A DNA stretch of 64,000 nucleotides, from contig JAZNDS010000034.1 of the NCBI GenBank assembly GCA_045588145.1, positions 4,840-68,839 on the forward strand. The letters run 5' to 3'. This DNA comes from Eubacteriales bacterium (GTDB lineage: Bacteria > Bacillota > Clostridia > Oscillospirales > CAG-272). The position numbers and the translations under genes were made by a program. Of the stretch, positions 37,908 to 41,918 are shown one piece after another. How positions within the stretch are numbered: the first letter of the stretch is position 1; the number at the start of each line of letters is the position of its first letter. Under the pieces are notes generated by a model, which saw only the letters and a list, made by a program, of their open reading frames with translations, was not told the origin of the DNA and made no database searches.

Positions 37908-38894
37908 ATGAATTACATAATGCTGGACCTCGAATGGAACCAGACCTACCAGCAGAAGGCGCTTGCCGTCCAACGGCGCATCGGCGCGCACCTGCATGGG
38001 GAGGTCATCCAGATCGGGGCTGTGAAATTAGACGAGGAAATGAATATCATCGGCAGCTACAGCGTCATCGTGAAGCCGACCTTTTTCTGCCGTATCCACC
38101 GCCACGTGCGTGACCTGACGCATATCACCCAGGCAATGCTTGATCGCGGCATTCCGTTGCCCGAGGCGGCCGAAAGCTTCCGCCGTTTTTGCGGAAAGGA
38201 CTTCGTGCTGCTGACCTGGGGGCCGGACGATGTGCCGATGTTCCGTGAAAATCTTTCCGCCCATAACATCAAATCCGAATGGCTGGACTGCGATTACGAC
38301 CTGCAAAAGATCTACAGCCGCCAAAGGGAGGGGGGCGCCAAGAAGCAACGCTCGCTTGAATTCGCGATGGAGGCGCTTGGGATCCCCCAGAACCTGCCCG
38401 CGCACGACGCGCTGAACGACGCGTATTTTACCGCCCTTGTCGCCACGCGGCTCGACGTTGTTTCGGGCGTTCGTGACTACGGCGAGCGGGGGGAAGGCTA
38501 TCTTCTTGACAAGACCTACGGGGACGCCGATATCGGCGAGGTTGGCTACAAGACCACCGAGGAGATCCTCGCCTCTCCGCATTTTTCGATCCCGCCCTGT
38601 CCCGTCTGCGGCGGCGGGCTTATAGCCCTTACCAAGGCCCTGCAGGGAAGGGGTCACCGTTATTCCACGCTTTGCAGCTGCGAGCGGGATGGGGAAATGT
38701 TTTTGAACGTGCGTATCTTTCGCAATTGCGACGATACGCTTCGCTTCCGCAAAACGATGACGGTGGCGGACCCCGAGGAAAGCGCGCAGCACAAGAAAAA
38801 GCTGCAGGAGGCCTCGGCCAAGCGCCGCCGTCGCCGCGTGCGTCGGAAGAAGCCTGTTCGAGCCGAAGGGACACCCGCCGAGGCTCCCAATTAA
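37908..38894 (+). CDS. DEDD-family 3'-5' exonuclease-domain protein with a C-terminal Cys cluster and a basic tail.
   Basis: Exo I motif MLDLEWN and HDALNDAY (Exo III-like); C-terminal CPVCGGG...CSCE. Confidence 0.7.
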   Translation: MNYIMLDLEWNQTYQQKALAVQRRIGAHLHGEVIQIGAVKLDEEMNIIGSYSVIVKPTFFCRIHRHVRDLTHITQAMLDRGIPLPEAAESFRRFCGKDFVLLTWGPDDVPMFRENLSAHNIKSEWLDCDYDLQKIYSRQREGGAKKQRSLEFAMEALGIPQNLPAHDALNDAYFTALVATRLDVVSGVRDYGERGEGYLLDKTYGDADIGEVGYKTTEEILASPHFSIPPCPVCGGGLIALTKALQGRGHRYSTLCSCERDGEMFLNVRIFRNCDDTLRFRKTMTVADPEESAQHKKKLQEASAKRRRRRVRRKKPVRAEGTPAEAPN

Positions 38895-38911
38895 CCGCCG
38901 AAAGAAACAGA

Positions 38912-38947
38912 GGCACTTATGGCAAAATCGTCATAAGTGCCTTTTGC
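38912..38947. terminator. Bidirectional terminator between the exonuclease gene and the cysteine-rich peptide gene.
   Basis: Perfect 10-bp palindrome GGCACTTATG-gcaaaatcgt-CATAAGTGCC followed by TTTTG. Confidence 0.55.
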
Positions 38948-39023
38948 TACCTAACGGGAGGCGCTAAAGCGAGCAACAAAATCATCGGCTTGAATGCTTT
39001 ATACGGTGCGGTAGCGCCGTATG

Positions 39024-39188
39024 TCAGTCTTTTTGATCAAATTCGGGAAAACAAAGAGAATAGTAGTCGCACTCGTCGCAGCAGCATTCAAAGCCCTGCT
39101 CCCCGTTGCCAAGACAAACGTCGGGCTCTCCGGGTGTAAGCTCTACGCCGGTAACATCGATTACCTTTTTGGAAAGATCTTTACTCAT
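39024..39188 (-). CDS. 54-aa acidic six-cysteine peptide/protein of unknown function.
   Basis: Reads MSKDLSKKVIDVTGVELTPGEPDVCLGNGEQGFECCCDECDYYSLCFPEFDQKD. RBS GAGGAG lies 5 nt upstream, with a dedicated promoter and leader (next two features). Confidence 0.6.
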   Translation of the reverse strand: MSKDLSKKVIDVTGVELTPGEPDVCLGNGEQGFECCCDECDYYSLCFPEFDQKD

Positions 39189-39357
39189 TATTCTCCTCTG
39201 TGTATAAAAAAGTGCACCCCCGAAGGAATGCACCGAAAAAATGTTCCCCCTCGAATGCTGCTACACAAACTCTCAACGATGGTACGAGAAAAGAGAGAAA
39301 ACACTTTTTACCAAAGTATTTTCCCATCGTTGAGAAAAAATATGCAGTTTGTGTAGC
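39189..39357 (-). promoter_or_regulatory. Structured ~170-nt 5' leader of the cysteine-rich peptide gene. It has nested long-range helices followed by a UUCG-tetraloop intrinsic terminator with a U6 run 22 nt before the AUG. It is a candidate attenuator or riboswitch.
   Basis: RNA stems: CUACACAAAC/GUUUGUGUAG (39260-70 / 39347-57), CUCAACGAUGG/CCAUCGUUGAG (39271-82 / 39324-35), and GUGCAUUCC-UUCG-GGGGUGCAC-UUUUUU (39212-39233). Confidence 0.45.
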
Positions 39358-39363
39358 GTAAAC

Positions 39364-39411
39364 AGTATACCATGTTTTAGCCGATTTGTCAACGGCGTGA
39401 GAATTTGACAA
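39364..39411 (-). promoter_or_regulatory. Sigma-A promoter with a dyad operator for the peptide gene.
   Basis: TTGACA-17-TATACT, with TTGTCAA-N11-TTGACAA overlapping the -35 element. Confidence 0.5.
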
Positions 39412-39454
39412 AAGCATGATTGTTTCTGCTTTTTCCATCAAGGCGGTGGTTGTC

Positions 39455-39491
39455 AACAAAAAAGGACAGAGAACGTAAAAATTCTCTGTCC
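39455..39491 (-). terminator. Intrinsic terminator of the DedA-Cls gene.
   Basis: GGACAGAGAA-cgtaaaaa-TTCTCTGTCC, with a U-run following on the minus strand. Confidence 0.6.
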
Positions 39492-39550
39492 TTTCCTGTT
39501 TGTGTGTCTATACCGCTCTGTCGCAGACATCCTTCTACGGAGCTTTTTCA

Positions 39551-41824
39551 TTAAAATAATGGAGCAAACAGCGAGAAAAGGCGGTGGATCCATACCTCAA
39601 AGCGGTTCATGCGGTAGTTTTCGCTCGTTACCTCCTCACTCACCTTGAAAAGCGAATCGAAATCGCGGCGGATGGCCTGCAGCGAGGGGTCGCGGCAGAT
39701 CACGGCGCCACACTCGAAGTGATGCGAAAAGCTACGGTAATCAAGATTGATGGTACCAACGAAGCCGAGATTCCCGTCCGCGAGAAGCTGCTTGGCGTGA
39801 AGAAAGCCGGGGGTATACTCGTAAATACGGATGCCCGCCGCCAAAAGCCCGCGGTAGGAGGCGCGTGTCATGGCAAAGACCACCCTCTTATCGGGGATAT
39901 GGGGGGTCACGATCCGTACGTCCACCCCACGCAGGGCGGCGTTCTTCAAGGCGGTCTCCAGGGTATGGTCCATCACGAGATAGGGGGTCGTGATATAAAG
40001 GTATTCCTTGGCCGAGGCGATCATCGAAAGGAAATTGTTTTGCTGGGCGCCCTCCTTATAATGGGGCAGGGGGCCGCCGCCAAAGGGGTGGATATAGCCG
40101 CCCGCCGTTGCCTCCTCGCGGTAGCTTTGAAAATAACGGCTGTAATCCTCGTCGGCCGCAGGGGCCCTTCCCGAGGTGTCGTAGGCCTGCAAAAAGAGGA
40201 AGGTAAAGTTCGCCACGGCCGAGCCGCGGAAGCTGATCGCCGAATCCTTCCATTTTCCGAAGGGCTCCGCAAGCCCCGCGTACTCGTCGGCAATATTGAT
40301 CCCGCCGGTATAGGCGACCTTCCCGTCAATCACGGCGATCTTGCGGTGGTCACGGTAGTTGTAGATGCCCGAAAGGATCGGGCGGATCGGGTTGAATTTG
40401 CGGCATTTGATCCCCTCCTGGGTGAGGATGAAATCAAAATCCCCGGGCAGATCCCCCAGCGTGCCGACATCGTCGTACAAAAGGCGGACCTCGACCCCCT
40501 CCCGGACCTTCTCGCGAAGGATCGCGTGAAGCTCGTCCCAGATCCTCCCCTTTTTGATGATAAAATACTCAAGGAAGATAAAGGACTCGGCCGCGCGGAG
40601 CGAGGCGAAAAGATCCTCGAAGAAGGCGGCCCCGTCTCCGAAATAGCTGACGCGGTTGCCAAGATGCCCGTGGGAGTAGGCCGTGCGGTTCAGCGTTTTT
40701 TCGATCCCGCCGTATTCGGCGAGCGTCTCCTCGATCGCGCGGCGGTAGGCAAGGTCGGCTGTAAGGTAGGTCTGCCTTTGCTTTTCAATGCTTGAGAGGG
40801 CGCGGCTTTGCTTTTTCCGCACCTTGGGGTTGGCCAAGAAAAGATACAGCACCGCCCCCAGCATCGGGAAAAGAAGCAGGATCACCAGCCACACCAGCTT
40901 AAAGCCGGGGTCGGTATCCTTTTCGGTCAGATGAATGAAGATCCCAAGCGAAAGAAGGGTGTTCAGGATCGCGATAACGGCGTAATATTGGATAAAACGC
41001 GCCATAAGAAAGACGAGCGTCGCGACCTGTAAAAGAATGGCAAGTCCGAAGATCAGTCCGCGCGAAAGCAAAAGCTTAAAGATCTTTCTCGGCTTCCCCT
41101 TCAGAAAGGTGGGGATCTTGGCGGCCACGTAATCGGTGAAAAGATCGAATTTTTCGGCCAGAAGATCGGCGTGGCGGAAGCAGACGTAGAAAAGAAGGAT
41201 CCCAAGAAGCGTAGCCACCACGATGATCGGGATCCCCCAGCCCTCAAAGGGGATCAGCTCTCCCGAATAGAAGACCAGCGTGCAGCCGATCGAGGTGATC
41301 CGGGTCGAAAGCTGCATCAGGAGAAAGACCGAGAAGGGAATCGGCAGGACCCCCGCGATGAGTGAAATGAGATCGTCGGGAAACATCGGGAACAAAAACA
41401 TAAAGAAAACGGTGACCGCTTCCTTATTGCGGGAGCGCATAAGGATCGAATCGACCTTTTGGGGGTCGCCCGACAGCCAGTACACGAAGCGCTTGCCGAA
41501 AACTCTTCCCAGAAAGAACGCGAAAAGAGAGCCGCAAACGATCCCGATGTAGGAATAAAAGAAGGAGGGAAGCGCCCCGAAAAGGTAGGCCCCGCCGAGA
41601 ATGGTCACGGTGGAGGGGATGGGAATAAAGGTCACCTGCAAAAAGGATAAAAGGATAAAGATAAGCGGGGCCGCCGCCCCATAGGCCGCAAGGGCCTTTT
41701 GCAGGGATTCCTTCGAAAGATCGGTGAATCCGAGCGCGCGGAAAAGAAGCCAGCCCCCAAGCAGCAAAAGAAGAATGCCGAGGACCGACAGCGTTTTCTT
41801 GAGAATAAGCTTTTTATCCTTCAT
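39551..41824 (-). CDS. Fusion protein: N-terminal DedA/TVP38 (SNARE-associated) membrane domain joined to a C-terminal cardiolipin synthase with two PLD HKD domains.
   Basis: N-terminus resembles VTFIPIPSTVTILGGAYLFG...RVFGKRFV (DedA). C-terminus has the Cls TM pair and HRKIAVIDGKVAYTGGINIAD and HAKQLLADGNLGFVGTINLD HKD motifs. Confidence 0.85.
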   Translation of the reverse strand: MKDKKLILKKTLSVLGILLLLLGGWLLFRALGFTDLSKESLQKALAAYGAAAPLIFILLSFLQVTFIPIPSTVTILGGAYLFGALPSFFYSYIGIVCGSLFAFFLGRVFGKRFVYWLSGDPQKVDSILMRSRNKEAVTVFFMFLFPMFPDDLISLIAGVLPIPFSVFLLMQLSTRITSIGCTLVFYSGELIPFEGWGIPIIVVATLLGILLFYVCFRHADLLAEKFDLFTDYVAAKIPTFLKGKPRKIFKLLLSRGLIFGLAILLQVATLVFLMARFIQYYAVIAILNTLLSLGIFIHLTEKDTDPGFKLVWLVILLLFPMLGAVLYLFLANPKVRKKQSRALSSIEKQRQTYLTADLAYRRAIEETLAEYGGIEKTLNRTAYSHGHLGNRVSYFGDGAAFFEDLFASLRAAESFIFLEYFIIKKGRIWDELHAILREKVREGVEVRLLYDDVGTLGDLPGDFDFILTQEGIKCRKFNPIRPILSGIYNYRDHRKIAVIDGKVAYTGGINIADEYAGLAEPFGKWKDSAISFRGSAVANFTFLFLQAYDTSGRAPAADEDYSRYFQSYREEATAGGYIHPFGGGPLPHYKEGAQQNNFLSMIASAKEYLYITTPYLVMDHTLETALKNAALRGVDVRIVTPHIPDKRVVFAMTRASYRGLLAAGIRIYEYTPGFLHAKQLLADGNLGFVGTINLDYRSFSHHFECGAVICRDPSLQAIRRDFDSLFKVSEEVTSENYRMNRFEVWIHRLFSLFAPLF

Positions 41825-41918
41825 AAAATATCCCTCCAAGGGAAAGTATAGCACAAGCGCCAAAAAAAGGCAAAGCAATTGATAAAAAATTTACAAATGG
41901 GGCGGCCGCATTTTATTC

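Follow-up and report, generated by a model that had tools for sequence, protein, structure and literature searches.

A 64,000-nucleotide (nt) stretch of an Eubacteriales genome (Clostridia; Oscillospirales; CAG-272; contig JAZNDS010000034.1 of assembly GCA_045588145.1, positions 4,840 to 68,839; hereafter, the window) encodes on its minus strand a 54-amino-acid (aa) cysteine-rich protein, whose gene is located behind its own promoter and a structured leader RNA. It is probable (roughly 0.7) that this locus is one copy of an insulated cassette that is portable and whose strong, constitutive sigma-A promoter, with an extended -10 element, is controlled by a conditional terminator acting in cis, and that this device is a general gate for accessory and cargo genes in gut Clostridia and their prophages. 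Such a cassette would comprise, in order, a hairpin, the extended -10 promoter, a leader of ~150 nt, a ribosome-binding site (RBS), a small open reading frame (ORF), a 3' untranslated region (UTR), and a second hairpin. The original prediction, which was made from the sequence alone, had described the region as a self-contained transcription unit, and this view is supported by our analysis. The central features of the cassette are as follows (window coordinates; here and below, cassette features are on the minus strand unless stated).

39364 to 39392, minus strand: sigma-A-type promoter TTGACA-17-TATACT (11/12 consensus match)
39205 to 39358, minus strand: structured leader RNA, beginning at the predicted 5' end of the transcript and ending with the terminator U-run (covariance model R1)
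39347 to 39357, minus strand: 5' strand of helix P1, GCUACACAAAC, pairing with 39260-39270 (covariation in 8/11 and 10/11 pairs)
39324 to 39334, minus strand: 5' strand of helix P2, CUCAACGAUGG, pairing with 39272-39282 (compensatory changes in 9/9 modeled pairs in both sets)
39297 to 39323, minus strand: inner hairpin P3 with a GGUAA loop at 39308-39312 (-9.4 kcal/mol, and covariation)
39293 to 39308, minus strand: segment X, i.e., the P3 3' strand and its CU-rich tail (16-bp duplex with X', -18.4 kcal/mol)
39237 to 39259, minus strand: linker and X' (AGCAUUCGAGGGGGAACAUUUUU), pairing with X (anti-antiterminator) or with the terminator (antiterminator, -17.4 kcal/mol)
39206 to 39234, minus strand: intrinsic terminator GGUGCAUUCC-UUCG-GGGGGUGCAC-U6 with a 10-bp stem (-14.4 kcal/mol; 7/9 pairs covary)
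39193 to 39198, minus strand: Shine-Dalgarno sequence GAGGAG (direct reading)
39024 to 39188, minus strand: ORF of the 54-aa acidic Cys-rich protein (translation and homologs)

Most elements of the original prediction were recovered. The promoter (TTGACA at 39392-39387 and TATACT at 39369-39364) was confirmed and additionally carries a TG extension (39372-39371, giving TGgTATACT at 39372-39364) that was absent from that account. The RBS GAGGAG is present at 39198-39193, homologs having AGGGGGA or GGAGGA at an unchanged spacing, and the ORF at 39188..39024 encodes the 54 residues quoted, with 6 Cys, 13 Asp/Glu compared with 4 Lys, and a net charge of about -9. The two nested leader helices are exact, P1 and P2 both being perfect 11-bp helices, and homologous leaders carry compensatory changes in each of them. 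The predicted UUCG terminator with its U6 tract lies at 39234-39206 and has the G+C-rich stem of at least 5 bp, the loop of 3 to 8 nt, and the U-run of an intrinsic terminator.

The leader is a conserved structured regulatory RNA, as had been proposed. The minimum free energy (MFE) of its ~150 nt is -61.5 kcal/mol, compared with -37.0 +/- 4 kcal/mol for dinucleotide shuffles (z = -6.1). Upstream of peptide genes, two classes of leader were found, namely, a short class 1, to which the window copy belongs, and a class 2 that is ~55 nt longer and has an extra helix; both are located behind an extended -10 element at a fixed distance in 71 of 73 peptide-linked loci. A covariance model (R1; P1, P2, P3, and terminator) trained on 24 class-1 peptide-linked leaders matched the window leader over its full length and on this strand only (160 bits; E = 2e-36). 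This model found every peptide-linked leader (110 to 181 bits for class 1 and 40 to 62 bits for class 2), with reverse-strand scores of 15 to 28 bits; the strand specificity of the class-1 scores is attributable to G-U pairs. In the 72 best peptide-linked matches, 95.5% of the cells were paired and 30 of 41 pairs showed compensatory double changes. The covariation score of this set was 0.418 versus at most 0.074 with partners slid by 1 to 3 columns (slid controls, 37 to 51% paired), and none of 500 shuffles reached the observed values. Covariation was even stronger in an independent metagenome set (described below), with 93.6% paired, 35 of 41 pairs double-changed, and a score of 0.516 versus at most 0.083 (controls, 33 to 52% paired). 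The sequence of P2 differs wholly between subgroups and yet remains complementary, which is visible in unaligned raw sequences. The most sequence-conserved part of the leader is P3 with its CU tail, where conservation exceeds pairing needs; among 68 unique protein-anchored leaders, 61 have a GNNAA loop in P3, which sits on a short stem closed by A-U.

A scan against Rfam 15 (4,227 families) provided no match for the window copy, either to a riboswitch or to any other family: the best scores were 12 to 24 bits against thresholds of 40 to 92, with E values of at least 0.7 and implausible microRNA and small-RNA models. The leader copy from a prophage likewise had no match in Rfam. Two known types of leader were rejected. 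A T-box has no Rfam support, and the UGGU loop is replaced by UGUU, UGAC, and UGAU in natural variants, which are unable to pair with NCCA. A leader-peptide attenuator of the trp or erm type was dismissed because the AUG within P2 of the window copy is absent from other class-1 leaders. Judged from these sequences, the leader appears to be a widespread RNA family that is undescribed in the sense of not having been characterized or named, rather than of never having been computed.

Thermodynamic and comparative evidence suggests that parts of this RNA can pair in alternative ways. X' is the purine-rich linker immediately 5' of the UUUUU that precedes the terminator, and X shares a strand with P3, so that P3 and X:X' compete. 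In nearly all of 50 unique peptide-linked leaders, X:X' is 12 to 17 bp long and its sequence covaries (GCAAGCUCC/GGAGUUUGC, GCAAAUUCC/GGAAUUUGC, GUACAAGUUUC/GGGGCUUGUGC, AGUGUUUUCUC/GAGGGGGAACA, and GCGCAAGCUCC/GGAGUUUGCG); the cognate pairs in these 50 leaders have a stability of -15.6 kcal/mol, compared with -11.1 kcal/mol for non-cognate pairs. The antiterminator is formed by the linker and X', which are complementary to the 5' arm, loop, and 3' arm of the terminator, and here CAAUCGGAG/CUUCGGUUG changes jointly to CUAUCGGAG/CUUCGGUAG. A cognate-partner test over 145 unique leaders from all sets gave the following energies for cognate, non-cognate, and shuffled partners, respectively.

X:X': -14.4, -9.7, and -6.4 kcal/mol
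Antiterminator: -24.1, -19.0, and -13.8 kcal/mol
P3: -10.9, -6.3, and -5.1 kcal/mol

In the window copy, the energies of P3, X:X', the antiterminator, and the terminator (listed above) are balanced. RNAfold of the full window leader returned the antiterminated form as the MFE structure and the terminated form as the centroid.

We propose that, within the scaffold of P1 and P2, five segments would engage in four mutually exclusive pairings (i.e., segment 1 with X, which is P3; X with X'; the linker and X' with the terminator; and the terminator itself). On emerging from the polymerase, X' would use the unpaired CU-rich tail of X as a toehold and displace P3, forming the long-range, pseudoknot-like X:X' duplex. 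Once X:X' had formed, the terminator would be free to fold, making OFF the default state. An effector that locked P3 and the CU-rich region would leave X' to pair with terminator sequences, and read-through (ON) would follow. The direction of switching in this scheme is a guess, and one with somewhat less than an even chance of being right.

The leader is not confined to genes for the Cys-rich peptide. Searching IMG/VR and a metagenome collection with the pattern TTGGTAAAAN{55,85}TTTTTCGGTGCR yielded at least 120 matches in each, of which R1 confirmed 99 of 100 IMG/VR loci (66 to 122 bits) and 82 of 91 metagenome loci (27 to 159 bits), all at full length. A -10-like hexamer ends 2 to 11 nt before P1 in 109 of 114 unique viral and metagenome copies, with a TG extension in 93. 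Downstream of each confirmed copy, and on its strand, come an RBS and an ORF, the latter starting at most 200 nt (usually 40 to 75 nt) from the end of the pattern. The 204 downstream proteins belong to at least 51 unrelated families and are mostly hypothetical, exported, or membrane proteins. The largest groups were membrane-anchored PASTA-domain proteins (89 proteins), DUF4839 lipoproteins (19), an unknown family of 340 to 354 aa (17), and the Cys-rich peptide (9, all metagenomic); the remainder included many other lipoproteins, zinc-ribbon membrane proteins, and an ABC ATPase. A protein scan of IMG/VR detected a single relative of the peptide. Because the majority of the leaders lie before genes other than that of the peptide, the peptide is unlikely to regulate its own expression. 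Likewise, the earlier proposal that the leader senses something tied to the peptide's chemistry, such as a metal or redox state, is weakened, given that at least 51 unrelated families of genes follow the same leader.

In one prophage type, the promoter and leader occupy a fixed site and the cargo is exchangeable (L091:5140-5922 and ~100 related IMG/VR loci, L089 to L207). A Bro-N gene is located upstream, and genes for a VRR-NUC-like protein, a DUF2800-like protein, and a large helix-turn-helix protein lie downstream. The cargo differs between near-identical phages, being a PASTA membrane protein, a DUF4839 lipoprotein, a 350-aa unknown protein, or a 170-aa unknown protein. The slot has the look of an accessory-gene hot spot, with a possible role in exclusion or defense. 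BLAST searches with a distant peptide relative and with the prophage leader copy revealed no copy in deposited phage genomes and plasmids. The features of a moron-like cassette are thus present, namely, its own promoter and terminator, unrelated neighbors, and variable cargo at a fixed prophage site; the window copy is chromosomal.

Three further loci extend the picture of the leader. A divergent peptide relative (L087) keeps a class-1 leader in which P1 and P2 are compensated. In L287 (739-898 and 2262-2421), two leaders lie 1.5 kb apart, each before a different zinc-ribbon/membrane protein gene, indicating that arrays of independently gated cassettes exist. A shorter and weaker relative of the leader (30 bits) was found before a lipoprotein gene at L018:3732-3876 (minus strand), with its own extended -10 element and terminator; the RNA family thus probably reaches beyond the exact pattern and model R1.

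What the leader responds to may be considered from two sides, which we rate about equally, each as a possibility rather than an expectation. If it is a metabolite or ion riboswitch, P1, P2, and P3 would form an aptamer for a metal ion, a second messenger, or an envelope-related metabolite, and the ligand would choose between X:X' and P3. The strongly covarying structured domain joined to a terminator/antiterminator platform fits this idea, as do the highly conserved unpaired nucleotides (UUGGUAAAA, the CU-rich tail, and CAACAAU) and the many targets that are envelope or exported proteins; second-messenger riboswitches have broad regulons. Measured against the definition of a riboswitch, a conserved, covarying sensor domain and an expression platform of mutually exclusive pairings coupled to it are both present, but the controlled genes have no common metabolic or transport theme. 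The targets form at least 51 unrelated families without a shared pathway, transporter, or enzyme theme, the aptamer would be one long irregular hairpin lacking a multi-helix junction, the promoter and leader atypically move as one module, and no Rfam riboswitch matches. The diversity of targets, the lack of a metabolic theme, and the fusion of promoter and leader argue against a pathway-specific metabolite and fit a global signal or a dedicated regulator.

The latter option corresponds to a protein-dependent attenuator, in which an RNA-binding protein of the host or a prophage would bind the P3 GNNAA hairpin and CU tail and thereby set termination or antitermination; boxB/N, PyrR, TRAP, and LicT-type control are analogs. 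The GNNAA loop, the conservation of P3 and the CU tail beyond pairing needs, a regulon resembling co-regulated accessory genes rather than a pathway, and the occurrence of the element in prophage early regions are consistent with such a protein. However, no conserved regulator gene adjoins the leaders, the resemblance to boxB is a lead at most, and the element also occurs on chromosomes outside a prophage context, as in the window. A fuller reading covers both options and is held more tentatively than the cassette itself: the leader would be an effector-responsive antitermination switch of a new class (a riboswitch or the target of a new regulator) that, with its own promoter, forms the portable gate of a large, horizontally shuffled regulon of accessory and cargo genes in gut Clostridia and prophages. 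This regulon would include genes for surface proteins, possible superinfection-exclusion/defense genes, and the Cys-rich miniprotein, which would itself represent a new metal-binding domain family.

Several points weigh against the conditional-terminator reading and this extension of it. A metabolite riboswitch would not usually control such diverse downstream genes, and this diversity gives no pointer to an effector. Every pairing described here is computational; with respect to P1 and P2, X:X' would be a pseudoknot, some class-2 copies have a less uniform antiterminator, and RNAfold prefers the terminator in about half of the platforms. The pairing percentages given above are inflated, because the alignments (A6 and A9) were fitted to the model, and the retrieval pattern for viral and metagenome copies fixes UUGGUAAAA and UUUUUCGGUGCR, so that conservation there and in part of the terminator is built in. 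Finally, two copies of the leader without an ORF leave room for a function of the RNA alone.

That last point leads to the possibility of a stand-alone small RNA (sRNA) gene, whose ~150-nt terminated product would act in trans while downstream ORFs were expressed incidentally by read-through. The strong promoter, the efficient-looking terminator, the many copies per genome, and the ORF-less copies (L080:5517-5728 and L053:3024-3232) would suit such a gene. We nevertheless regard an sRNA gene as unlikely: every confirmed copy is co-oriented with an RBS-bearing ORF that begins soon after the U-run, leaving no room for a second promoter, and a covarying antiterminator is meaningful only if read-through is regulated. 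The two ORF-less copies retain the terminator and lie just 5' of an intact cassette, and they represent either decayed tandem copies or RNA-only units.

Even less probable is a DNA-level repeat (e.g., a miniature inverted-repeat transposable element, an attC-like recombination site, or a mobile-promoter element), in which the long inverted repeat would keep its pairing as DNA and the RNA structure would be irrelevant. The element is indeed multi-copy, often located at contig ends or on lone contigs of ~620 bp, and it shows tandem arrays, exchangeable cargo, and conserved flanking hairpins. A repeat of this kind is at odds with the difference between forward and reverse scores of class-1 leaders (110 to 181 versus 15 to 28 bits, owing to G-U pairs), with the fixed position after a promoter and before a U-run, and with covariation that ties the element to terminator sequences outside the palindrome. 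Furthermore, the ends of the window cassette are two different hairpins without terminal inverted repeats or target duplications, and the neighborhood shows no enrichment of recombinases. Both the sRNA gene and the DNA repeat are less likely than a conditional terminator in cis because the strands are asymmetric, the orientation is fixed, and the element covaries with the terminator.

The conservation of the cassette has sharp limits. BLAST of the window against the other loci revealed a conserved unit at ~38,890-39,505 in up to 80 independent loci, with flanks that are not conserved; the cassette thus moves as a single unit from one hairpin to the other, with promoter, leader, ORF, and 3' UTR. 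The outer parts of this unit are as follows.

39461 to 39494, no strand assigned: upstream G+C-rich hairpin (GGACAGAGAA...TTCTCTGTCC) with a T-run (terminator scan)
39393 to 39411, minus strand: A/T-rich DNA 5' of the -35 element, containing TTGTCAA and the conserved box AAATTCTCACGC (alignment of 24 class-1 cassettes)
38949 to 39023, minus strand: conserved 3' UTR including a hairpin at 39000-39023 (kept in 5 to 7 close loci)
38902 to 38948, no strand assigned: bidirectional terminator hairpin (GGCACTTATG...CATAAGTGCC), the 3' border of the cassette (direct reading)

The upstream hairpin is kept 5' of class-1 cassettes and 3' of class-2 cassettes; it is the upstream border of the cassette, at which conservation among the loci begins, and would terminate transcription from, or insulate the cassette against, the upstream cls-like gene. 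Together with a flanking CTGTCGGTAGGTAAC motif, this hairpin recurs at cassette borders in either orientation (e.g., L012:6170-6260, 3' of a class-2 cassette), and in many loci it is followed by a conserved stretch of ~60 nt (TATTCTATTGAATTTCAAAAACTGTCCTTTAGAGTA). The downstream hairpin, at which conservation ends, is kept in L014, L027, L038, L046, and L073, and the 3' UTR sequence is also visible in read-through translations of two homologs (P0022 and P0143).

Between the upstream hairpin and the -35 element, the original prediction had placed an operator at a dyad with an 11-nt spacer. The spacer is in fact 12 nt (TTGTCAA at 39411-39405 and TTGACAA at 39392-39386), and the left arm varies in homologous cassettes, reading TTGCCAA, TTTTCAA, TTGATAA, TCACCAA, and others among the 24 class-1 cassettes, in which AAATTCTCAAGC is kept. 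An operator at the dyad was accordingly rejected, and 39393-39411 is probably UP-like, A/T-rich promoter DNA. The leader of the window copy, unlike any other, has an AUG in P2 that starts a frame of 48 codons (39186-39330, minus strand); this frame runs through the leader and ends in a UAA overlapping the main AUG (UAAUG). This frame is probably fortuitous, the AUG not being conserved in other leaders, and it explains N-terminally extended gene calls in databases.

The neighbors of the cassette, which are unrelated from locus to locus, had been described for the window as convergent or divergent. The downstream neighbor is convergent, as stated; the upstream neighbor, a cardiolipin synthase-like gene (39551..41878), is co-directional with the cassette rather than divergent. 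The window copy is the sole one in the 64 kb and is chromosomal, lying among housekeeping genes (leuS, a type III glutamine synthetase-like gene, tsaD, and rimI) with no prophage nearby.

The peptide had been regarded as an orphan, a view that is no longer tenable: it has thousands of relatives and is often multi-copy within a genome. Homologs of the window peptide form 1,182 clusters at 90% identity, the best 120 of which are 75 to 91% identical to it, and none of them is functionally named. A profile search with the peptide family gave 536 representatives of 50% clusters, and a profile of distant members gave 3,303 clusters at 90% identity. In GTDB species representatives, at least 477 stretches encode a relative among the 598 candidate stretches listed. 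Among the best 80 loci, several metagenome-assembled genomes (MAGs) are represented by two or three contigs; many copies are located at contig ends, and L003 and L006 carry tandem copies of the peptide gene. Apart from the window, a peptide of exactly this sequence is recorded only on a 623-bp contig, and several peptide clusters are known solely from contigs of ~600 to 700 bp; these lone short contigs have the appearance of a collapsed repeat. In one MAG (L061:4314-6183), the peptide gene directly follows spoIIAA-spoIIAB-sigF and has a terminator-like hairpin only, lacking the long leader and promoter. A link to sporulation was rejected, given that L061 is a single case and the promoter is of the sigma-A type.

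The ORF is real and under selection. Differences per site at codon positions 1, 2, and 3 are 0.081, 0.064, and 0.312 across 81 copies, the contrast between the first two and the third indicating purifying selection on the protein. The conserved core reads [IV]D.TG..L.PG.P..C.GNG(4-12)E.CCD.CD[YH][YF]L.CFPE. Five Cys are invariant (C25, C36, C37, C40, and C46), whereas the first Cys of the CCC triplet and the entire tail after EFD vary, these C-terminal tails being short and polar and sometimes just 2 to 3 residues long. The peptide and its fused forms had no match in Pfam (E <= 10), NCBIfam, or PADLOC, and a PDB profile search with the peptide found no match (best E = 0.57). AlphaFold2 gave no confident fold, with predicted local distance difference test (pLDDT) values of 43.7 and 60.2 from alignments of 25 and 57 sequences.

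The Cys domain also occurs at the C terminus of longer proteins (variants examined: P0121, P0179, P0191, P0257, and P0259) and is duplicated in tandem within P0121. Its fusion partners include C termini resembling RelB/DUF6290-like antitoxins (E of ~1e-8, below the cut-off), XRE helix-turn-helix segments, and zinc ribbons. In P0179, an N-terminal 'IVDITGTILSPGE' segment is present in triplicate. The members of a distant subfamily are encoded in a conjugative element, with a DnaB_2 gene on one side and resolvase/coupling-protein genes on the other, and they have no leader. A second unnamed domain of ~70 aa (...SKRHKIRMNRIFRERVGGSFLPFPEVDCFYERVRSKIVVKLK...basic tail), which has no Pfam match, is fused C-terminally to the Cys domain in several loci (L005:4534-4905, L007:5573-5944, L009, L015, L025, L078, and L001), and in L261 (minus strand, ~549) it forms a separate gene behind the same leader. 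The five invariant Cys fit metal binding without proving it, and no zinc-ribbon CxxC...CxxC pattern is present. Our best guess from the sequences is that the protein is a small acidic domain stabilized by its Cys cluster, presumably through a metal (Zn or Fe-S), that would act via protein contacts.

The original prediction had also raised SCIFF or another ribosomally synthesized and post-translationally modified peptide (RiPP) as the identity of the product, in which case a SCIFF- or ranthipeptide-like precursor would be matured by a radical S-adenosylmethionine (radical-SAM) enzyme encoded elsewhere. This identification did not hold up, and we consider a RiPP precursor highly improbable. The many scattered copies per genome recall dispersed precursor genes, the C-terminal tail is variable, and the Cys residues beside Asp/Glu (CCCDECD) are reminiscent of Cys-Asp thioether peptides. 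Against this, the peptide matches no family, including TIGR03973/PF13165 (SCIFF), at E <= 10; no conserved neighbor or maturase was found in 81 loci, where only generic ABC ATPases clustered and without synteny; and no large ORF of the 64-kb window contains a CxxxCxxC motif. The Cys region is invariant and only the short, polar tail varies, and the same domain is found C-terminally in, or duplicated within, larger proteins with antitoxin-like, helix-turn-helix, or zinc-ribbon segments, all of which speaks for a folded domain. L087 (8473-10069) offers a direct contrast: a member of the present Cys-rich family there has, 3 kb away, a genuine SCIFF gene (PF13165) accompanied by its radical-SAM/SPASM gene, and the two families are clearly distinct.

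Comparison with known systems helps to place both the RNA and the protein. Like riboswitch expression platforms and the trp-type 1:2/2:3/3:4 attenuators, the leader lies right after the promoter, forms exclusive covarying helices, and has its terminator just 5' of the RBS; like multi-hairpin attenuators, it has an anti-antiterminator, an antiterminator, and a terminator in series. It differs from these systems in having no conserved leader peptide and in that one competing helix reaches, as a long-range pseudoknot, the apex of a long hairpin. The cyclic di-GMP-I (GEMM) riboswitch class is located upstream of many unrelated genes, often surface-related or phage-borne, and the same is true of this RNA. 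However, cmscan gave no match to GEMM, and here a single irregular hairpin takes the place of a two-hairpin aptamer and the promoter is inside the conserved module. With boxB of the lambdoid N proteins, the leader shares a short stem with a G-N-N-A-A pentaloop; the leader alignments include a GACAA variant (e.g., L054), which is identical to the P22 boxB loop; we treat the resemblance as a lead only. Unlike in the boxB system, no N-like protein was identified, and the hairpin takes part in alternative pairing with a nearby terminator rather than in processive antitermination. Phage morons resemble the cassette in being bounded by terminator hairpins, in having their own strong promoter, and in the fixed prophage slot with exchangeable cargo, but they are not defined by a shared structured leader, and the window copy lies among housekeeping genes.

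For the protein, the likeness to SCIFF (TIGR03973/PF13165) consists of a length of ~50 aa, six Cys, and an origin in Clostridia; the Cys spacing here is C-x10-CC-x2-C-x5-C, no radical-SAM/SPASM gene adjoins it, and the domain is also found inside larger proteins. The Cys-rich proteins of Firmicutes mobile elements (Pfam Cys_rich_VLP, Cys_rich_KTR, and Cys_rich_CPCC) and zinc-ribbon mini-domains are similarly tiny and Cys-rich, and distant members of the present family reside in a conjugative element. These families differ from it in that no Pfam match was obtained at E <= 10 and no CxxC...CxxC pattern is present.

Literature on the Cys motif, on Cys-rich small proteins with riboswitch candidates, and on RNA motifs of Lachnospiraceae prophages yielded no description of the element. 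Two bulk catalogs, one of human microbiomes and one of IMG/VR viruses, which list unnamed structured-RNA candidates by the thousand, do not mention it in their text, and its core sequences are absent from the portion of their supplements covered here; the catalogs could contain it elsewhere. The principle of terminator versus antiterminator is already well known. The novelty lies in the RNA family, its five-segment layout with a pseudoknot, the fusion with a promoter into a mobile module, and the very broad, cargo-like regulon.

With at least 3,300 clusters at 90% identity and ~80% identity between species, the Cys-rich protein ranks among the better conserved small-protein families that lack a name, and Pfam has no entry for it. 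The combination of a strong promoter and a conditional terminator is compact and portable and could find use in anaerobes as a device for gene expression. Should the leader prove to be a true switch, it would be a common regulatory RNA class of human and animal gut Clostridia, present on prophages as well as chromosomes, and its regulon would amount to a list of co-regulated accessory genes, mostly for exported proteins of no known function. The identity of the effector would then assign a physiological condition to all of these genes and would explain how prophage cargo is gated.

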